From: an uncultured Clostridia bacterium
Lineage (GTDB): Bacteria > Bacillota_I > Bacilli_A > RF39 > UBA660
DNA: 64,000 nt
Assembly: GCA_948433435.1 (NCBI GenBank)
Contig: CAOJDX010000002.1
Location: 25,432 to 89,431, forward strand
Direction of reading: 5' to 3'
The translations under genes were made by a program, and so were the position numbers. This document shows positions 29,340-61,508 of the stretch, one piece after another. The notes below the pieces were generated by a model, which was not told the DNA's origin, made no database searches, and was given only the letters and a program-made list of their open reading frames with translations. Position 1 is the stretch's first letter, and the number at the start of each line of letters is the position of its first letter.

Positions 29340-29693
29340 CTAATTATTTTTAATTTTTTCTTGATAATACTTAAATAATTCTTTAAATCTATTATAGTGA
29401 ACAATTTCTCTTTGCCTAAGCCATAATAATGGACCTATTACATCAGCATCTTCTGCTAAATCAATTAAGTTTTCATAAACTGCTCTAGCTTTTTGTTCTG
29501 CTGCCATATTCTCAGAAATGTCAGCTAGTGGATCGCCAGTAGTAGCAAAATATGTTGTTGTAAAAGGTACTCCATTGGCATCTGTTGGGAATAAAGCTCT
29601 ACTATGTTCCGCATAATGAGGATCAAGTCCAGCTTCCTTTATTTCTTCTATTGTAGCATCCTTCATTAATTGATAAACCATAGTTGAAATCAT
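29340..29693 (-). pseudogene. cotJC: cotJC 3' fragment (Mn-catalase-family spore coat protein, C-terminal part), split by prophage insertion
   Basis: The translation (QYCKN)ELAHVEMISTMVYQLMKDATIEEIKEAGL... continues exactly where the 60904..61110 fragment stops (...LLTDIGTEEL). There is no RBS or start of its own. Confidence 0.8.
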
Positions 29694-29729
29694 TTCTACA
29701 TGAGCTAATTCATTTTTACAATACTGTTA

Positions 29730-31898
29730 TCAGTCAAAGGGCAATAAAATAATATCAATAGTGAAATTTTCTTTTAAATAGCGGCCTCCATGGTCTTTTT
29801 TATATATAATTTTCTTAATTATTGTAGATAATAATTCGTTTTTTTCTTCGGCTGTCATTTCTGGAGTATAACTACTTAAAACATCTTCTAATATAGGTAT
29901 AGCCTTTTTCTTGCTAGTAAATTCATGAGCTATATTATTTATGTTAGGCAACTCTTGTTTTTGATTTAATAATGCTTCTAACTGATTATTTAAAACATCT
30001 ATTCTTTTTTTAAAAAGTTCTTTAGTATATGCTCCAGCTTCTACTAATTCACAGGCTTTCTCAATTTGTGCGTTTACTTTGTCAATTTCATTGTCTATTA
30101 CCTGTATAACTTCTTTGTTATTATTTATTTCTTTTTGTACTGCTTCTTTGTAATTATCAATATATAATTTATAATCTTCTTTTATTGATCTTAATGTTTG
30201 TAATATTTTACTTTCCACTAATTCTAAATCGCTTGAAACACACTTACATCTAGGGCGACTACACATAAGAGTATCGGCGTGCGCTGGCGTTATACTTTCT
30301 TCTAATGTAGTTACTGCTTTATCAAACTCTGTAGTTTCTATATTCAATAATTTCTTTAGATCTTCCCATTTATTAGCGTATGGCATGGTAAATTTATCGT
30401 CATTACTAGCAAACCAATGATCTACGCAGCATTTAGATACCTTTAAGGATCTAGCTATATCGTTTAGACTATAGTCTCCTTTATGTTCTCGAAGTAATAA
30501 TCTTAACTTAGTCTTATTAACTTCGTAAACTCGTTTTACTGTAGGTTTTGTGTCTTTTCTTATATAGTATGGTCGTCTCGTCATATTATTACCGCAATAC
30601 CCACAAACAACTAAACCAACAAGAGGGTTTTTTAATTCTTTCTCGTCTGGAACAGTTTTAACTCGATTACTTAAAAATTTTTCTTGTATTCTACTACGAT
30701 ATTCTTCATTTAAAATACTATTTTTGTAATGTTTACCTTTTACGAATAAATAATCATTATTATTAGGGTTTTTTCTTACAATTTTACCATTTACTAAAGT
30801 TGTAACAGTTTTTCGTCTGTCCCAAGTTAAATAGCCGTATATAGTTGGACTTTGTAATATATTTCGTATCATATTGGCCGTCCACTCTTTAGCTTTTCTA
30901 GGAGTGATTTTAAGGTAGTTAAAATAGTGTGCTATGTTTGTTGGTCTCATATCGTCAATAATTATTTTAATTGTTTCTCCAGGGTTAAAAATATCGTTAG
31001 GTATATGTATATGATCTATTTTTATATGATAAGCAGCTGATATACTCTCTAATGTATCATTTTCTTGTAATGTATAATCAACACTTTTACTATCTACCGT
31101 AAGTTTTATATCATAACCAATTTTTAAATCTAAATTATGAGTAATTATTACTTTTTTATGAGTACCAAAAGTTTTAGCTATTGTAGATACCGTATCATTT
31201 TCTTTTACTATGTAAGTAGTATTAAGACCGTCCAAAAATAAATCAGCCATAAGTCTAACTACTTTAGCCTCCGACTCATTTTCAACTAACATAAAACCTT
31301 TTTCGTTAGGTATTTTTATTTTATTAGATCCATAAGGAAGCACAGAGCCCACATAATTACCTTCTTTAACGCTTCTTACACGCCCACGAGATAATATTCT
31401 TTTGGTATATTTTAAGTATTTTCTTGACTGATATAAGCCGTCTTCAAAATAGGAAAGATCATCTTCATTGTCAAGATCATAAATTTTCATAGGAGTTACT
31501 ATTTTTGTACCAGTATACTTAAATGTTTGAGCTATGATACCCTGGTCTATAGTGTTACCACGTGCTAGACGTTCTATTTCAATACATATAACGCCTTTTT
31601 TATCGTCGTTTTCTATTATAGATAATACTTCTTGCATTACTGGACGATTTTCGATAGTGTCTCCAGACGCAACCTCTCTATAGATATTATGCTCTGGTAT
31701 AGGTTTACCGAAAATACTTATAATAAAGTCCTGTAAGTCTTTTTCATGACGTTGTAATGTTTTTTCTATAGACTCGTCTTTAAAATAGTCCATATCTTTA
31801 CGTGATTTTCTTAAGTATATTATTAACATATCTAGTATTTCATCTATAGATAGATTACTAGGTATATGTAAAATTCTTAAAAATGTATCTAAATTCAT
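29730..31898 (-). CDS. Large serine recombinase (SpoIVCA/SprA-like integrase)
   Basis: It has an N-terminal resolvase catalytic domain (YLRKSRKD...IERLARG) and long recombinase and zinc-ribbon/coiled-coil domains. Its stop codon lies inside the attL arm. Confidence 0.9.
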   Translation of the reverse strand: MNLDTFLRILHIPSNLSIDEILDMLIIYLRKSRKDMDYFKDESIEKTLQRHEKDLQDFIISIFGKPIPEHNIYREVASGDTIENRPVMQEVLSIIENDDKKGVICIEIERLARGNTIDQGIIAQTFKYTGTKIVTPMKIYDLDNEDDLSYFEDGLYQSRKYLKYTKRILSRGRVRSVKEGNYVGSVLPYGSNKIKIPNEKGFMLVENESEAKVVRLMADLFLDGLNTTYIVKENDTVSTIAKTFGTHKKVIITHNLDLKIGYDIKLTVDSKSVDYTLQENDTLESISAAYHIKIDHIHIPNDIFNPGETIKIIIDDMRPTNIAHYFNYLKITPRKAKEWTANMIRNILQSPTIYGYLTWDRRKTVTTLVNGKIVRKNPNNNDYLFVKGKHYKNSILNEEYRSRIQEKFLSNRVKTVPDEKELKNPLVGLVVCGYCGNNMTRRPYYIRKDTKPTVKRVYEVNKTKLRLLLREHKGDYSLNDIARSLKVSKCCVDHWFASNDDKFTMPYANKWEDLKKLLNIETTEFDKAVTTLEESITPAHADTLMCSRPRCKCVSSDLELVESKILQTLRSIKEDYKLYIDNYKEAVQKEINNNKEVIQVIDNEIDKVNAQIEKACELVEAGAYTKELFKKRIDVLNNQLEALLNQKQELPNINNIAHEFTSKKKAIPILEDVLSSYTPEMTAEEKNELLSTIIKKIIYKKDHGGRYLKENFTIDIILLPFD

Positions 31899-32063
31899 AT
31901 TATAGCACTTTCTTTCTTTTAAATTTTATGCTATAATCGTATAGAAAAACCTATACAATTATAGTTTCTTATATAACCTATTAGTTTCTATTTTTGTTCT
32001 GAGTGTGATAGCTTTTGTGGTTTTTCATTTTGACACTTTATGTTCGCGCATAACGTGTCTTTT

Positions 32064-34846: not shown

Positions 34847-35101
34847 ATGAGAATAACAAGTGTTAAAGTTAAAAAAATAGAAGAAAAAAATTCACGCTTA
34901 GTAGGAGTAGCTACTGCGGTAATTGATAAAGTATTTATCATTGAAGATATTAAGATTATTAAAGGCGACGAGAAATTGTTTCTAGCTATGCCTAGTCAAA
35001 AAATGCCTGACGGATCATACAAAGATATAGCACACCCACTTAACGCAGACTGTAGAAAGTTATTTGAAGACGCTATCTTAACAGAATATGATAATTGCTA
35101 A
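34847..35101 (+). CDS. SpoVG-family protein (phage-encoded)
   Basis: MRITSVKVKKIEE...KVFIIEDIKIIKGDEKLFLAMPSQKMPDGSYKDIAHPLNADCRKLFEDAIL aligns along its length with SpoVG (MEVTDVRL...[36 protein letters not shown]). Confidence 0.7.
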   Translation: MRITSVKVKKIEEKNSRLVGVATAVIDKVFIIEDIKIIKGDEKLFLAMPSQKMPDGSYKDIAHPLNADCRKLFEDAILTEYDNC

Positions 35102-36323: not shown

Positions 36324-36965
36324 ATGTCTAAATCTAAGCCTAGATATTTTAGAGTAAAATTCGGACGTAAAACAGTTAGGCCGTTTAAAAAGCCAGATAT
36401 TGATAATATGATCGTAAATTGTAAAAAACGTATGGCCGAAGCTGAAACGAAAGAAGATCAAGAACAATATTACTTATGGTATCGAAACTATATGATTTTA
36501 CATCTAGGTAGAAACTTAGCCTTTCGTATAGAGGATCTATTACAATTAAAAACAGACAATTTTAAAAATGGTGGTATATATACGAGAGAGTTTAAGACTG
36601 GAAAAGAGCAGACATTCGAATTACACCCTTCTCTAGCTAAAGACGTTGAAGAATACGTAAATAAATTCGAGTTAGTCGAAGGAGAGTATTTATTCAAGAG
36701 TCGTAAAGGTGTTAATAAACCTATTACACGTCAAAGAGCATGGCAGATTATAAAACAATTAGCTAATGAAGTTAAAGTCAATTATGTTGTAGGCTGCCAC
36801 TCTTTACGTAAATACTTTGCTCGTACTTATTACGAACAGACAGGAGATCTTATCGGCCTATCAGAGATGTTAAACCACTCTAGCCCTAGAGTAACGCTTA
36901 TATACATCTGCTGGGAGACTGACGATAAGGAAGAAAAAAGAAAAGGCTTCTATTTAGGAGGTTAA
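36324..36965 (+). CDS. Tyrosine recombinase, catalytic-domain-only (phage integrase family)
   Basis: It has the catalytic residues R (GRNLAFRIEDL), K (FKTGKEQ), HxLR (GCHSLRKYFA) and Y (NHSSPRVTLIYI). It has no N-terminal core-binding domain. Confidence 0.7.
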   Translation: MSKSKPRYFRVKFGRKTVRPFKKPDIDNMIVNCKKRMAEAETKEDQEQYYLWYRNYMILHLGRNLAFRIEDLLQLKTDNFKNGGIYTREFKTGKEQTFELHPSLAKDVEEYVNKFELVEGEYLFKSRKGVNKPITRQRAWQIIKQLANEVKVNYVVGCHSLRKYFARTYYEQTGDLIGLSEMLNHSSPRVTLIYICWETDDKEEKRKGFYLGG

Positions 36966-55683: not shown

Positions 55684-56805
55684 ATGTTGGGTGTAATCAA
55701 TGTTCGAGATAAAAGATCGAACAATTTAAGTAAGGTTTACGGAGTAAGACGTTCCCTAGCTTCTTCTTCGTCAGCCTGGGAAAGAATTGAGGACGCTGTA
55801 GGTTTAGTAGCTAACGCACAAGTGGGAACAACTGCTGTAAGAAATGATTTCGATAGTATTTACCCATGGAGCGATATAATTACTTGTAATTATAATAATT
55901 CTACTAAAAAAGTAACCGCTTACTATGGCGACGCTAATTTCTCATTTACTGGAGGTACTAACATACAAGTTATGACTATTATTCCAGAGTTTTATTACAG
56001 ACGTTATATTTCCGACGGTTACGAATATATCTTTATTTCTAAAGACAATTTAAGTGGCTTTATTAAGAGTAAAGAATTTATGATCGGACGTTATACAATG
56101 TCTGGTACTTCTTCTGGAGTATATAGTCGTAGCGGACAAGCTCCATTTACTAACCACACTATCGCAGAGTTTAGGCAATATGCTAAAAACTTGGGCCCTG
56201 GCTGGAGTCAATTAGACTGGCATTATTTCTTAATACAGCTACTTTATTTAGTAGAATATGCAGACTATAATATTCAGTCTAAAATTGGACCAGGACATAC
56301 TAACGCTAATAATACAGCACCTAAAAATAGCGGTGGCTGTAATGCTTTAGGTATGAAATCTGGTTGTATGGTTAAAAATGATACGAACTCTGTTGTTTAT
56401 AGAGGTATCGAAGATTTATACGGTAATGTATGGCAATTTTTCGACGGTCTTAATATAAATAACTATCAAGCTTATATCAATTATAACCCTAGTACCTACG
56501 CTTCTGATGTGTTCGACGGAGATTATCATAAGTTAGGCTATGTTAATAGTTCTACAAGTAGTAGTTATATAACCTCTTTAGGTTATGATCCTAAAAACCC
56601 TTTAGTAGGTCTTCCTACTGATGTAAACGGTAGTAGTAATACTTATATGTGTGATTATTATTGGACTCAAAGCGGAGAACGAATAGCTCTTGTCGGCGGT
56701 GCTTGGAATAACGCATTTCATGCGGGGTTGTGGTGTTGGATCTTTTACGAGGCGTCTTCTGCTTATGGCGTGGGCGTCGGAGCTCGACTTCTTAAAACCA
56801 GTTAG
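55684..56805 (+). CDS. DGR target: receptor-binding tail fibre with C-terminal variable region
   Basis: Its last ~35 codons are the VR (ALVGGAWNNAFHAGLWCWIFYEASSAYGVGVGARLL). This region is homologous to the downstream TR, as expected for a C-type-lectin-fold DGR target. Confidence 0.7.
   Translation: MLGVINVRDKRSNNLSKVYGVRRSLASSSSAWERIEDAVGLVANAQVGTTAVRNDFDSIYPWSDIITCNYNNSTKKVTAYYGDANFSFTGGTNIQVMTIIPEFYYRRYISDGYEYIFISKDNLSGFIKSKEFMIGRYTMSGTSSGVYSRSGQAPFTNHTIAEFRQYAKNLGPGWSQLDWHYFLIQLLYLVEYADYNIQSKIGPGHTNANNTAPKNSGGCNALGMKSGCMVKNDTNSVVYRGIEDLYGNVWQFFDGLNINNYQAYINYNPSTYASDVFDGDYHKLGYVNSSTSSSYITSLGYDPKNPLVGLPTDVNGSSNTYMCDYYWTQSGERIALVGGAWNNAFHAGLWCWIFYEASSAYGVGVGARLLKTS
56687..56795 (+). repeat. 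DGR variable region (VR)
   Basis: It is the 3' end of the tail-fibre ORF. From ttgtgg to cgacttctta it is identical to the TR except where the TR has A. Confidence 0.7.
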
Positions 56806-56933
56806 CGGGGGTTTGGGGGCGGCCAGCCTCCCATAAATAAAAAATTAAATTACCGACTGAAAGTCGGCGACGCTCCATTTTAAAATTTGGGGAAATGGTG
56901 TGTGCGCTTCGGTCGTTCTTGTCCTTTTGAGAG

Positions 56934-57363
56934 CTCTTGTCGGCGGTAGGTGGAACAATGCTCTTAATTGTGGCTTGTGGTATTGGAATTACAACAACGC
57001 GTCTGCTGATTACAGTATCAACGTCGGAGCTCGACCACTTATATTAAGATTAGGGATTTGATGTGTATGCTTCGGTTTGTGATTACTGCTCTTGTCGGCG
57101 GTAATTGGTACGAGCACACTCGCGCTGGCTTGTGGTGTGTTACGCTTAACAACCTAGCGTCTAACGTGAACTCTACGATCGGAGCTCGACCACTTGTATT
57201 AAAAATAGGGATCTGGTGTGTATGTTTCGTTGTTTATGACCGTCTACTCTTGTCGGCGGTTGTTATGTCGACCACCTTATGTGTGGCTTGTGGTATTGGA
57301 ATTGTAATCAAGCGTCTTCTATCGCATGGACTAACGACGGAGCTCGACCACTTGTATTAAAAA
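56934..57363 (+). repeat. Three tandem VR/TR-like cassettes (R2 56934-57046, R3 57089-57201, R4 57247-57360), period ~157 bp
   Basis: Each cassette starts with ctcttgtcggcggt and ends with cggagctcgaccactt(a/g)tattaa. Each is an in-frame alternative ALVGG...GLWxW...GARPL module. Confidence 0.75.
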
Positions 57364-57404
57364 TATGGGATCTGGTGTGTGTGCTTTGATGTTGACGCTT
57401 GCTG

Positions 57405-57512
57405 CTCTTGTCGGCGGTAATTGGACTAACAATACTAGATGTGGCTTGTGGTATTGGAACTTTAACGAGGCGTCTTCTGCTTATAACGTGAACGTCGGAG
57501 CTCGACTACTTA
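57405..57512 (+). repeat. DGR template repeat (TR)
   Basis: It is the last cassette, about 125 bp upstream of the RT gene. All nine 3'-region mismatches to the VR are TR adenines. Confidence 0.7.
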
Positions 57513-57637
57513 TCATTAAATTCCTTACACATCATTTTCCTTAGCGCTTGCTAAAAATTAGTCGTTCTGGGTGGGTTTAGTAGGTTTATTCTCGAAAAAC
57601 TCGCAGGCAAATATAAAAATTATAAGGACCAGGAAAT

Positions 57638-58702
57638 ATGAAAAGAACAGGTAACATTTATCAAAAAATCATAGAATTAAGCAATATTGAAGCAGCTATT
57701 TATAAAGCTAGCAAAGGTAAAGGAAATCGTAAGAGTGTTGAAAAAATACTCGACTCTCCTACATATTACGCTTTACAGATACAAAAAGCATTACAAAATA
57801 AAACGTACAGGCCTAGTCCATACGTTGAAATGAAAATACACGACGGAGCTAATAAGAAGGAACGTATTATTTATAAACCACACTTCTACCCAGATCAGAT
57901 AGTACACTGGGCGTTAATGCTTCAATTAGAGCCTTTACTTATGAAAGGTATGTATGAGTTTTGCTGCGCTAGTGTTAAAGACCGCGGTATTATGCGTGGT
58001 ATGAGACATATTAAAAAGATCTTAGTACAAGATCGTAAGTATACTAAATATTGTTTAAAGCTTGATATTAAGAAGTTTTACCCTAGTATTGATAAGCAGA
58101 TACTGAAAAATAAATTTCGTAGGATCTTAAAAGACAAAGATACTCTTAATCTTATAGACCTTATTATTGATAGTGGTATCGAAGGTATACCTATCGGAAA
58201 TTTCACGAGTCAATGGTTTGCGAATTTTTATTTACAGGATCTCGATCATTTTATAAAAGAACACTTAAAAGTAAAATATTACGTGCGTTATATGGACGAT
58301 ATGGTATTATTTTCTAACAACAAAAAAGAATTACGAAAAATCAAAATAGAAATCGACAATTTTCTAAGTAAAGAAAAGCTAACGATAAAAGAAAATTGGC
58401 AGCTTTTCAAAACTGAGTCTAGGCCTCTTGATTTCTTAGGTTATCGCTTCTATCGTGGGTATACTACTCTTAGAAGAAGTAATTTCTTAAGAATTAAGAG
58501 GCGTGCGAAGAAAATGAGTAAGAAAGATCACATAACTTTCCACGACGCCGCAGCTATGATTAGTTATAGCGGCTGGCTAAAACATTGTAACTCTTATAAT
58601 TATCAACAGAAGTACATAAAACCGTATGTAAATTATAAATTGTGTAAGGAGGTTATAAGAAATGAAAGTAAAAAAGACAGAAAGCACAATAAGACCACTT
58701 AA
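57638..58702 (+). CDS. DGR reverse transcriptase
   Basis: It has the RT motifs including YVRYMDDMVLF (YxDD) and the DGR-specific IPIGNFTSQWFANFYL (I/LGxxxSQ), which closely resembles the bRT of Bordetella phage BPP-1. Confidence 0.9.
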   Translation: MKRTGNIYQKIIELSNIEAAIYKASKGKGNRKSVEKILDSPTYYALQIQKALQNKTYRPSPYVEMKIHDGANKKERIIYKPHFYPDQIVHWALMLQLEPLLMKGMYEFCCASVKDRGIMRGMRHIKKILVQDRKYTKYCLKLDIKKFYPSIDKQILKNKFRRILKDKDTLNLIDLIIDSGIEGIPIGNFTSQWFANFYLQDLDHFIKEHLKVKYYVRYMDDMVLFSNNKKELRKIKIEIDNFLSKEKLTIKENWQLFKTESRPLDFLGYRFYRGYTTLRRSNFLRIKRRAKKMSKKDHITFHDAAAMISYSGWLKHCNSYNYQQKYIKPYVNYKLCKEVIRNESKKDRKHNKTT

Positions 58703-59186
58703 CTTTAAAATTGGCGATCACAAAGGCAACCTTATAGAGGTTGTTTTTTTTGACGACATAGAAGAAGTTATAAGGACATCAGAAGACGGAACAGAACAAA
58801 CGGTATATCTTTATTATGAGTACACTATCAAAATAGTTAATAGAAGTGATTTAGAGTCTTATATAAACGAAAACTATGAGACATGGCTACAAATGGCTAA
58901 AGATAACTTTATCGCTTCTAAATCAGCAGAAATAAGAGCAATAAGAGACAAATTACTCGCTGATAGCGACAAACACGTCCTTATTGATAGATTAGGTATT
59001 GAAATACCAGAAACAATTAACGCCGCCACTATGTTAACTGTTATCAAAGATCTATTTAGTTCTCTTGGTAATATCTTAAATGGAGACTGGTCTACTTATA
59101 GACAGGCTTTAAGAGATATTACTAAACAGCCTAACTTCCCATTTGACGTAGATTTTCCTACAATACCTGGAGAAAATAAAGAATAA
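58662..59186 (+). CDS. Hypothetical phage protein
   Basis: It is an ORF downstream of the RT. It is not Avd-like. Confidence 0.4.
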   Translation: MKVKKTESTIRPLNFKIGDHKGNLIEVVFFDDIEEVIRTSEDGTEQTVYLYYEYTIKIVNRSDLESYINENYETWLQMAKDNFIASKSAEIRAIRDKLLADSDKHVLIDRLGIEIPETINAATMLTVIKDLFSSLGNILNGDWSTYRQALRDITKQPNFPFDVDFPTIPGENKE

Positions 59187-59488
59187 TGGAAAGCTCGACT
59201 ATGATTTCAATAGGCTTAATTTTTACTATCATAGGTGGAATAATTGGTTATGCTACCTTTTATATGAATAGTAAGAAAAACACAAAACAAGAGACTAAAG
59301 AGGAAGTGGCTATGTCAACTAAGCTAGAGACTAAACTTGATATGATAAGTAGAAATATTGACGAAATAAGGCTCGATAATAAAGACTTTAGTAAGTCAAT
59401 ACAACAGTTGGCCGAACGTGTATCAGCTGTAGAACAGTCGGCAAAATCAGCACATCACAGAATAGATCAATTAGAAGAAAGAAAGTGA
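59186..59488 (+). CDS. Lysis-associated membrane protein (N-terminal TM plus coiled coil, XhlA-like)
   Basis: Its single transmembrane segment and position in the lysis cassette support this call. Confidence 0.4.
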   Translation: MESSTMISIGLIFTIIGGIIGYATFYMNSKKNTKQETKEEVAMSTKLETKLDMISRNIDEIRLDNKDFSKSIQQLAERVSAVEQSAKSAHHRIDQLEERK

Positions 59489-59742
59489 GGTGTCAGATAA
59501 TGACTTTAGAAGCTATTATAATGTTGGTTACTATGGTAGTAACCTTTTTTTGTGGTTTAATCGCGAAAAAAGTAAGTTGGTTTAATACTAACTTAATACC
59601 TATACAAAATATCATGATCGGCGTTATTGTGGCCGTTATAGAGTGGATCATTACTAAAGATTTTAGTACAGCTATAGCCGTTAGTGGTTTAATAGCTGGT
59701 GGTATCTATGATATAGGACATAATTTACAAAAAATGAAATAA
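59485..59742 (+). CDS. Holin
   Basis: It is 85 aa with 2-3 transmembrane segments and lies immediately upstream of the endolysin. Confidence 0.7.
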   Translation: MRCQIMTLEAIIMLVTMVVTFFCGLIAKKVSWFNTNLIPIQNIMIGVIVAVIEWIITKDFSTAIAVSGLIAGGIYDIGHNLQKMK

Positions 59743-59754
59743 GGAGGTCTCGCT

Positions 59755-60810
59755 ATGGAGAAAGTATTTGGTATTGATATTAGTACATATCAAAGAGGAA
59801 TAAATCTAGCAGCTGCTAAAAATGAAGGTGTTAGGTTTGCTATCTTAAGAGCTGGTTTTACTGGCTATGGTAACGGAGTCAGCAAGTCAAAAGATAATCA
59901 ATTCGAAAATCATTATAGAAATGCTAAAGCTAATGGTATTGGTGTTGGTGCTTATTGGTATAGTTGTGCTACTACTTATGAGAACGGCAGAGCTGAGGCT
60001 GAATATATGTATAATAATTGTTTGAAAGGTAAACAATTCGAGTACCCTATAGCTATAGATGTAGAAGATAGTCATTATCAAGCTAAAGCTGGTAAGGCTG
60101 CTGTAACAGCTGCTATTAAAGGTTTCTGCGAGTTTTTAGAAGCTAAAGGCTACTATGTTTCTATTTACGCTAATAGTAACTGGTTTAATAATTATATTGA
60201 TACATCACAATTAGCTAAATATGATAAATGGGTAGCTAACTGGAGCTCTAACAGACCAAGTAACCCAGCAGGTGGTCTATGGCAATTCGGCGGAGAAACT
60301 AACCGTATTAGAACAAATAAAGTAGCTGGTATGACTGTAGATCAAAACTACGCTTACTATGATTACCCAGCCATTATGAGACAAAAAGGCTTAAATGGTT
60401 TTAGTGCTGACGGAAGCGTACAACCACAAGAGCCTACACAACCAAGTAACCCAGCTCCACAACCTAGTACATCAAATAGCGACTCTGTTTATACAGTAGT
60501 AGCTGGAGATACTTTAAGTGGTATTGCTTCTAGGTATGGTACTACATATCAAAAGTTGGCCGCATACAATAATATTAGTAACCCTAATCTTATTCATGTA
60601 GGACAACAAATTAAAATACCTGGTGCTGGTAAGGACACTAATGTCGTTACCAACAATAGTAGAACATATACTGTTAAGAGTGGAGATACTTTAAGTGGTA
60701 TCGCTTCTAAGTATGGTACTACATGGCAAAAGATCTATAACGATAATAAATCTGTTATAGGATCTAACCCTAACTTAATTAAACCAGGGCAGGTATTAAC
60801 AATTAACTAA
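59755..60810 (+). CDS. Endolysin: GH25 muramidase with two C-terminal LysM domains
   Basis: It has an N-terminal GH25 fold (FGIDISTYQ...) and two LysM repeats ([14 protein letters not shown]..., [14 protein letters not shown]...). Confidence 0.9.
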
Positions 60811-60812
60811 AA

Positions 60813-60858
60813 AAGGAGGTCTCCGACTAAAATGTCGGTTACCTCTCTTTTTTTTTGC
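60813..60858 (+). terminator. Rho-independent terminator after the lysin
   Basis: The hairpin gaggtctccgac-taaaat-gtcggttacctc is followed by T9. Confidence 0.6.
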
Positions 60859-60903
60859 TCTTTTTTCTCCTTATTTTATCTATGGCTTTTATTTATGATA
60901 ATC

Positions 60904-61110
60904 TTATTGTGTCAATTCTTCTGTGCCAATATCCGTAAGTAGGGCTCTTCCCTGATTATCAGGCATAGTATAGCGTTGATTTAGATAACGAAGTGCCGCA
61001 GCAAGTTCTCCATTAGCACCACCATACTGTGTCACTAATATTTTAGCCATTTTTAAGTTTTTCTTTTTAATATTAACTGGATATTGTAATCTCTTTTCAT
61101 ATGCCCACAT
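60904..61110 (-). pseudogene. cotJC: cotJC 5' fragment (N-terminal 65 aa, premature stop in prophage end)
   Basis: MWAYEKRLQYPVNIKK...GGANGELAAALRYLNQRYTMPDNQGRALLTDIGTEEL matches the CotJC N-terminus and then runs into TQ* inside the phage arm. Confidence 0.8.
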
Positions 61111-61508
61111 TATTTACTACCTCCCTCAAATGGCCAAGCATCTACTTCCCATAAAAATGGGCTAGCATCTAATGAATCGCTATTAACAGTAATTGGTCCA
61201 TATTTTGTTTCGTATTCATCAATAAGTGAATTGGTTTTTCTACGATAATCGTTAAAAAGAGTTAACACAGATTCATCATTTGGATGTAGATCTAAATATA
61301 AATTAAGTTCATGACTAGCAAAACTAACTGCACTTAATTCTAATAATAATTTGCTTTGTTCATCTTTAGCTCTTAAAATAACTGGTTGATAATTCTTATA
61401 TTGGTCATAAAGTTCTGGAAATAAATTTCCTTTCATATATCCTTCTTCTGGTGAATATAAACTGACTGCCCTATTCCCACTTTGATCGTTCAAATTATAA
61501 TTATACAT
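61110..61508 (-). CDS. CotJA/CotJB-like spore coat-associated protein (apparent fusion)
   Basis: Its C-terminal ELNLYLDLHPNDESVLTLFNDYRRK matches CotJB. Its N-terminal GYMKGNLFPELYDQY resembles CotJA. It lies immediately upstream of cotJC. Confidence 0.55.
   Translation of the reverse strand: MYNYNLNDQSGNRAVSLYSPEEGYMKGNLFPELYDQYKNYQPVILRAKDEQSKLLLELSAVSFASHELNLYLDLHPNDESVLTLFNDYRRKTNSLIDEYETKYGPITVNSDSLDASPFLWEVDAWPFEGGSK

Follow-up and report, generated by a model that had tools for sequence, protein, structure and literature searches.

Herein, we examine the left end of a 31.2-kb prophage in a 64,000-nucleotide stretch of DNA (the window) from an uncultured Clostridia bacterium (GenBank assembly GCA_948433435.1, contig CAOJDX010000002.1, positions 25,432 to 89,431 of the forward strand), a low-GC Firmicute known from mouse-gut metagenomes. 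Our comparisons indicate, with a probability of about 93%, that the site at this end is the attL junction formed when the phage was put into the spore-coat gene cotJC by a large serine recombinase (LSR) of its own. The prophage boundaries were fixed to the base, at 29712–60916 plus one 2-bp core. For an uncharacterised integrase, this yields a fully specified attP/attB pair with a defined 2-bp core, validated by comparison; the integrase tolerates 22 3′ and 10 5′ alleles of its target as well as a ~70-bp relic of it. The pair is raw material for integrase toolkits and for the study of attB recognition, and it leaves the current understanding of serine integrases unchanged.

Prophage junctions, free phage form and empty site

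On the + strand, positions 29690–29735 end in atttctacatgagctAATTCatttttacaatactgttatcag, and positions 60896–60925 read TGATAATCTTATTGTGTCAATTCttctgtg. The sole identity common to both junctions is AATTC (GAATT on the gene-sense minus strand), at 29707–29711 and 60914–60918. The flanks of the two copies differ on both sides, and the match stops at 5 bp. The initial annotation, made from the window alone, had found GAATT in both junctions and had taken it as the core of the crossover. Its presence at both is borne out, and the exchange itself is confined to two of its bases, GA (TC on the + strand). As delimited here, attL spans 29688–29732 and consists of the host half-site B′ (29688–29709, cotJC codons LAHVEMI), the crossover dinucleotide (29710–29711, TC on the + strand and GA in the gene and recombinase sense, the centre of the attP dyad) and the recombinase-proximal phage arm P (29712–29732, ATTTTTACAATACTGTTATCA on the + strand). 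attR spans 60896–60940 and consists of the lysin-proximal phage arm P′ (60896–60916, TGATAATCTTATTGTGTCAAT on the + strand), the dinucleotide at 60917–60918 (TC on the + strand, assigned on the same evidence) and the host half-site B (60919–60940, antisense cotJC codons LTDIGTE). The right-end arm had been placed at 60897–60917, the correct location but off by 1 nt. Both host half-sites are 100% identical to, and continuous in, an empty-site contig (L030); their outer limits are nominal, being set by the typical attB size of ~44–48 bp (PMC5499854). Across contigs, the P arm is joined to 11 cotJC junctions. The P′ arm is joined to 8 cotJC 5′ alleles, of which 7 are genes and one is the L041 relic, and, in 6 attP contigs, to the P arm.

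When the two prophage ends were compared by megablast with 50,697 deposited phage genomes, there was no match, so the comparative evidence was taken from metagenome assemblies; IMG/VR held just two related contigs. Joining the phage-side arms gives gataatcttattgtgtcaATTCatttttacaatactgttatc, the attP that the initial annotation had correctly reconstructed. Exactly this sequence is present in an independent phage contig (L040, Logan DRR865667), found via a look-up of the window's exact endolysin in public assemblies. This contig carries lysin, attP and recombinase in that order, and over 102 nt across the junction it does not differ from the reconstruction. By blastn it equals window 57276–60918 joined to 29707–31793 with a 5-nt overlap. 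Eight further contigs are also in the attP form (L036, L007, L054, L056, L059, L061, L012 and L018). Several attP-form contigs are 29.9–30.7 kb long, close to the length of the 31,207-bp insert.

The empty site was retrieved with the window's exact CotJB protein. Among the matches listed, L030, L033 and L034 contain an uninterrupted cotJC of 564 nt, and 15 further places are similar. An in-silico join of the two cotJC fragments of the window is identical to these three intact genes. L030 equals window 64000–60914 followed by 29711–25903, at 100% identity over 6.9 kb and with a 5-nt overlap. Independent metagenome contigs thus show both outcomes predicted by the earlier model, namely the circle junction and an exact empty site. 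Junctions mapping elsewhere or long direct repeats, which had been named as evidence to the contrary, were not seen, and no long direct repeat is present. The core occurs once each in the empty site, attP, attL and attR, with nothing duplicated or lost.

The exchange point was located by comparing hosts that differ in codon usage. Read in the recombinase sense, attL is always arm-GA-host, with the host continuing as ATTAGC, ACTTGG, ACTAGC, AATGGC or GCT. In the GCT hosts (codon GAG; L005, L013, L020 and L023), the base after GA is that of the host and the base before GA is that of the phage. On the other side, attR reads arm ...GTGTCAAT-TC followed by TTCTGT, CTCTGT, CTCAGT or TTCAGT. The base after TC is host-specific in the CTC-type junctions (L038, L039, L042 and L044). 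Because the GAG and CTC hosts share just GA/TC with the phage, the exchange is confined to that dinucleotide, which is also the dyad centre. On this comparison the functional crossover is GA (TC on the + strand), not GAATT/ATTC. The identity at the junction is 5 bp in the window and 2–3 bp in other hosts; the full GAATT is shared in the window only because this host has TTA as its Leu66 codon, in agreement with the inner ATT that the phage arm carries. A non-palindromic core of 2 bp is a hallmark of serine integrases (PMC3783163; PMC5499854).

The attP arms, GATAAnnnTATTGTnnnAAT, pair at 14 of 20 positions, or 15 of 21 with the outer T, about the centre TC (29710–29711/60917–60918). They are thus the imperfect inverted repeats around the crossover that had been described from the window alone. 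In this DNA of 29.7% GC, 14/20 is reached at 29 of 63,950 window positions (4.5e-4, 0.045%), and other candidate centres in or beside the shared pentamer score 2–8. The arms pair at 13–17 of 21 positions in all attP forms examined. Eight forms were aligned (L040, L036, L007, L054, L061, L012, L018 and the window reconstruction); the seven independent contigs among them come from four LSR clades, 71–94% identical to the window enzyme. Their outward half-site consensus is ATT...ACaAT.a..TTATCA, also given as ATTnnnACAATnnnnTTATCA. Blocks 1–3, 7–11 and 16–21 are conserved, and the positions between them vary. A homologous arm, AGATAACATTAGTGTACTAAT, is borne by an element whose 508-aa LSR is 35–43% identical to the window enzyme.

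In the LI integrase–attP structure, the recombinase domain touches the inner positions 9–11 and the zinc-ribbon domain the distal positions 20–21 (PMC3783163). Blocks 7–11 and 16–21 fit this arrangement, and we infer by analogy that they are the recombinase-domain and zinc-ribbon-domain contacts. The recombinase TGA stop (29730–29732), correctly noted at the outset as lying inside the left arm, occupies positions 19–21 of the 21-bp P arm. The TGA is the outermost arm triplet in at least five clades (window, P0001, P0002, P0119 and P0073/L018), and in the P0104 clade (L072–74) the stop is a TAA placed 1 nt more outward. With its stop codon inside the P arm, the window recombinase gene overlaps attP at its 3′ end. 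The minimal attP of SPbeta is 52 bp (PMC5499854), and by this measure the last two to three codons of the recombinase gene probably belong to attP.

A large serine recombinase directed at cotJC

The recombinase gene lies on the minus strand at 29730–31898 and encodes 722 aa. The protein matches the Pfam families Resolvase (PF00239, E = 1.6e-7, above its cutoff), Recombinase (PF07508, E = 8e-12) and LysM, with a sub-threshold match to Zn_ribbon_recom. The motif YLRKSRKD contains S32, which is invariant in 21 homologues, and 1,326 homologues were found at E ≤ 0.001. By sequence search, the closest solved structures are the complexes of SPbeta SprA (YokA), aligned over the catalytic domain (SprA residues 15–208, E = 7e-30). 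An AlphaFold model built with 21 homologues had a mean predicted local distance difference test score (pLDDT) of 74 and a predicted template-modelling score of 0.35, with long helices at 558–676. Its fold matches full-length SprA (E ~ 1e-21), then phiC31 integrase and its N-terminal fragment, LI integrase (4kis) and TP901-1, and also the gamma-delta catalytic domain. On its family and fold matches, the 722-aa protein is a large serine recombinase nearest to SPbeta SprA. It would be predicted to catalyse attP × attB recombination without host factors. A tblastn search of cultured phages found no integrase above ~39% identity.

Compared with its 508-aa relative, the window enzyme has two insertions without counterpart, at residues ~225–320 and ~445–538. 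Residues ~225–320 form two LysM-like modules within the recombinase domain (Pfam LysM E = 9e-10 for the excised segment, in two stretches; pLDDT 83–88). Residues ~445–538 form a helical module of ~95 aa between the zinc-ribbon Cys pairs, with a pLDDT of up to 90 and sub-threshold matches of helix-turn-helix (HTH) type. In a full-text literature search, LysM and large serine recombinases were not named together in any paper.

The target gene is present in two pieces on the minus strand. The 3′ part (29340–29711) holds codons 65–187 and the stop of a Mn-catalase, starting from the core GA, and its Pfam Mn_catalase match covers profile positions 66–197 (E = 2.7e-29). The 5′ part (60917–61110) holds codons 1–64 and the first 2 nt of codon 65, with a Mn_catalase match over profile positions 1–68 (E = 2.5e-21). 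The latter open reading frame (ORF), called at 60904–61110, continues into phage DNA and is also supported by tblastn. Next to it lies cotJB (61110–61508, minus strand; PF12652 CotJB), the upstream gene of the cotJ operon. The presence of cotJB beside the fragments marks the target as a sporulation operon. From these matches the interrupted gene is cotJC of the cotJB–cotJC spore-coat operon, split after codon 64, so that cotJC in the window is interrupted, not missing.

The attB site is the stretch of cotJC codons ...GATATTGGCACAGAA-GA-ATTAGCTCATGTAGAA..., which encodes the conserved DIGTEELAHVE. The exact recombinase and its 63–94% identical relatives were found beside cotJC in many host contexts. 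LSR clades 63–94% identical to the window enzyme target one and the same cotJC codon, in 22 distinct 3′ and 10 distinct 5′ alleles. Phages with an identical recombinase are present in at least 7 cotJC alleles, and the LSR family in at least 22. Conservation of the DNA encoding DIGTEE(L/F/M)xH plausibly explains how the phage came to be in many cotJC alleles. The phage-integrase family was found solely in gut metagenomes, mostly of mouse.

Short or neighbouring targets were also encountered. One contig (L005:12590–12680) carries an inverted ~70-bp Mn-catalase relic (...LLNDIGTNE|SVHGEM...) ~60 bp downstream of cotJC. In another (L041:5140–5200), a phage is integrated in such a relic, at GGTACCAAT-GA-ATTGACAC, and obeys the polarity rule described below. 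L041 was considered as a mis-oriented junction, and this was rejected: it represents integration into the inverted ~70-bp relic downstream of cotJC. By this junction the relic is a natural secondary attB, and a short fragment suffices as target. The 508-aa serine recombinase belongs to a separate element, found in the window's host species (L031:4590–6141 and L032, with an identical CotJB protein), whose other genes include those for a PemK-like toxin and an M78 peptidase. This element sits at the cotJC position used by the window phage and faces the other way; its arm reads AGATAACATTAGTGTACTAAT-TC. At least two kinds of element thus have cotJC as a common insertion hotspot.

The orientation of the core sets the orientation of the prophage, and all five clades with attP and junction data conform. 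GA-core attPs give recombinase arm-GA-cotJC 3′ part. The L018/P0073 clade (73% identical to the window enzyme and nested among the GA clades, its nearest relative being L049 at 78%) has an attP that reads arm-TC-arm in the recombinase orientation. Prophages of this clade (L045–47) read recombinase arm-TC-inverted cotJC 5′ half, then cotJB, i.e., the same codon in the opposite orientation. The element with the 508-aa LSR (L031, L032) likewise belongs to the TC type. For Bxb1 and phiC31, the polarity rule was established experimentally (Ghosh 2003 and Smith 2004, cited in PMC3783163). Their non-palindromic 2-bp core sets polarity as it does here. There, polarity was switched by engineered mutation, whereas here the difference is a natural one between clades of a single LSR family at a single site. 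The GA and TC clades thus mirror in nature the experiments in which polarity was switched by design. The recombinase-side arm of L018 (5160–5205, TGATAACGAAATTGTAGCAAT) is identical at 19 of 21 positions to the lysin-side arm of L012, a hint that the L018/P0073 site may have been inverted as a unit, not mutated at two bases.

Proposed mechanism, rival explanations and known systems

In the proposed mechanism, an LSR dimer would bind attP, whose two 21-bp imperfect inverted-repeat arms flank the core GA, and a second dimer would bind attB in cotJC. The attP and attB dimers would synapse, all four strands would be cut at GA/TC, and the half-sites would rotate by 180 degrees and be religated. attL and attR would arise without base loss or duplication, with the non-palindromic core fixing the orientation of the prophage. 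On excision, the expected junction would be ...GTGTCAAT-TC-ATTTTTAC... The chemistry of these steps and the control of excision are what we infer.

Several points weigh against this account. The support for it is wholly comparative. The zinc-ribbon Pfam match scores 21.2 bits, below the curated cutoff of 25.3, because the ~95-aa insert parts the Cys pairs C432/C435 and C546/C551; these are invariant in 21 homologues, and both flanks of the insert align to the 508-aa LSR. The attB dyad is 7/20 and not significant, which leaves attB recognition putative. A weak dyad is usual for LSR attB sites. Half-site B has TATC where, going by PMC3783163, a zinc-ribbon motif shifted 5 bp inward would be expected, and B′ matches poorly; this partial fit carries little weight. 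A PHROGs search of 10 early-region ORFs gave no match to an excisionase or recombination directionality factor (RDF). RDFs are not homologous across systems, which makes a missing match uninformative. The prophage also contains a second recombinase gene, of the tyrosine family, in its early region, where it adjoins no att site.

One junction also departs from the polarity rule. In contig L008 (4740–4800, Logan SRR30018223), a GA-clade arm, with a recombinase equal to P0001, is joined to the inverted cotJC 5′ half and then cotJB. The junction reads ...CGTAAAAAT-TC-TTCAGTTGC, which is unexpected for a GA-core attP; it is seen in a single contig, whose own attP is not among the known forms. L008 could stem from a phage variant whose core is flipped, or from a rare antiparallel mis-join that replication then fixed; a mis-join of that kind would give exactly AAAAAT-TC-TTCAG. 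A TC-core arm of the P0001 type (TGATAACATAATCGTAAAAATTC) had one match in a single JGI metagenome scan, in an unrelated acyl-carrier-protein gene, and was set aside as chance.

Three other origins of the site were weighed, and each is far less probable. Integration could have been catalysed by the tyrosine recombinase (213 aa, 36324–36965, + strand; Pfam Phage_integrase E = 5e-20, phrog_216 'integrase' E = 9.5e-41), with GAATT as the overlap and the arms as core-type sites. This gene is conserved in related phages, but it encodes only 213 aa and sits in the early region, 6.6 kb from the att site. Tyrosine integrases use an identical core of at least ~6–7 bp as direct repeats, and the identity is 5 bp here and 2–3 bp elsewhere, falling in many hosts to 2 bp, too short for a tyrosine overlap. 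Moreover, the arm sequences vary with LSR clade, and an otherwise unrelated element, whose 508-aa LSR is a homologue, enters cotJC at the same position with homologous arms. We consider a tyrosine-driven integration very improbable. The imperfect inverted-repeat ends and the 5-bp direct repeat flanking the insert would also suit a transposon with GATAA... terminal inverted repeats and a GAATT target-site duplication. The flanking repeat, however, ranges from 2 to 5 bp with host codon usage, as chance phage–host identity explains. The free form and the empty site each hold one core copy, with nothing duplicated, and the same codon is entered in at least 22 alleles. No transposase was among the family matches obtained. 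The empty-site and attP comparisons rule out a DDE transposon, and the odds of any transposon-like insertion are correspondingly minute. Equally slight is the chance that the dyad is a functionless accident of AT-rich DNA. The window has 29.7% GC, and 29 other positions in it reach 14/20, but this dyad is centred on the independently mapped exchange point. Three arm blocks are kept in both arms across the aligned attP forms, and a homologous arm accompanies an LSR of 38% identity.

A further proposal adds to LSR-mediated integration and does not replace it: the prophage may also act as a sporulation-timed gene switch like skin in sigK or SPbeta in spsM, excised in the mother cell so as to rebuild cotJC. 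The target is a gene of the sporulation operon cotJB–cotJC, excision would restore the intact cotJC ORF exactly, and the closest characterised enzyme, SprA, does this for spsM. cotJC is named among sporulation-gene targets in a preprint (bioRxiv 10.1101/2021.11.22.469490), which cites Abe et al. 2013 for its listing as an insertion target. The prophage also encodes a homologue of SpoVG, of the sporulation/septation regulator family (34847–35101, + strand, early region). On the other hand, no sporulation-type promoter or directionality factor was found: a scan for sigma-70 promoters and terminators around the recombinase stayed at background level, not above chance, and PHROGs showed no excisionase. 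The full structural and lysis modules and the ~30-kb attP-form contigs fit an active phage, and the metagenome attP forms could equally be virions. On balance such a switch is possible but doubtful. Somewhat more doubtful still is a broader picture of a gut-phage LSR family with a LysM pair and an HTH-like insert, for which cotJC is a near-universal attB and serves as a sporulation-timed catalase switch, and in which the core flip could alter read-through or regulation. The natural core flip itself is observed; the catalase-switch function and the role of the extra LSR domains are speculation.

LSR-mediated integration, the account we favour, has close parallels among known systems. In Bacillus subtilis SPbeta (SprA/SprB, spsM), as here, an LSR lies at the prophage end, a sporulation-related ORF is split and excision restores it. 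The SPbeta attP likewise has ~50 bp of inverted repeats around a 2-nt core (PMC5499854). In SPbeta, the two sites are identical over a 16-bp core around AA, whereas identity here goes down to GA. SprA and the window enzyme are ~18% identical in the fold alignment. SPbeta is 134 kb against 31 kb here, the target gene and host differ, and no SprB-like factor was found in the window prophage with PHROGs. The LysM pair and the ~95-aa helical insert set the window enzyme apart also from the cotJC-targeting 508-aa relative in L031, which has neither. Listeria A118, with LI integrase, is another LSR phage that splits a host gene (comK). Its target and site sequences differ from those of the window, and the 5-bp inward shift predicted for attB is only partial here (TATC in B). 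Skin (SpoIVCA, in sigK) and the elements in spoVFB, spoVR, gerE and yabG are, like the present one, LSR elements in a mother-cell sporulation gene. The class also includes vfbin, gin and yin. Skin and several others are defective, domesticated elements, whereas the window element has full phage modules and free genomes of ~30 kb. By these comparisons the mechanism is textbook and cotJC a previously known target; the phage-integrase family itself is uncharacterised and without a cultured relative above ~39%.

Other features of the prophage

The prophage body (29712–60916) forms an insert of 31,207 bp with one core copy, and its deletion restores the empty locus at 100%. The lysogeny module lies on the left, and the structural, lysis and diversity-generating retroelement (DGR)-like genes lie on the right. 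The last phage gene before attR encodes an endolysin with a GH25 and two LysM domains (59755–60810, + strand), which was used to find attR and attP forms elsewhere. From its gene content and free forms, the element looks like an intact, complete and active temperate tailed phage of 31.2 kb.

Upstream of the recombinase, a leader of ~165 nt (31899–32060, minus strand) is conserved across clades more than the protein is. Within it lie a hairpin with covariation and a 14-bp inverted repeat, CTATAATTGTATAG/CTATACGATTATAG, and its RNA fold z-score is −3.3. A segment of it, ATTATAGC, can pair alternatively with GCTATAAT just before the ATG, and this pairing is kept in the 508-aa relative. The leader had no match to an Rfam family; it may serve to control translation of the integrase.

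The DGR-like module spans 55684–58702 on the + strand. It comprises a 373-aa tail-region gene with a variable-repeat-like 3′ end (56686–56804) and a reverse transcriptase (57638–58702). Four non-coding, template-like cassettes of ~119 nt, at 56933, 57088, 57246 and 57404, are conserved at their ends and variable in between. It is unusual for a DGR to have several cassettes. Between the coding copy and the cassette adjacent to the reverse transcriptase there are 25 differences in 112 positions, and 15 of these fall on adenines of the cassette.

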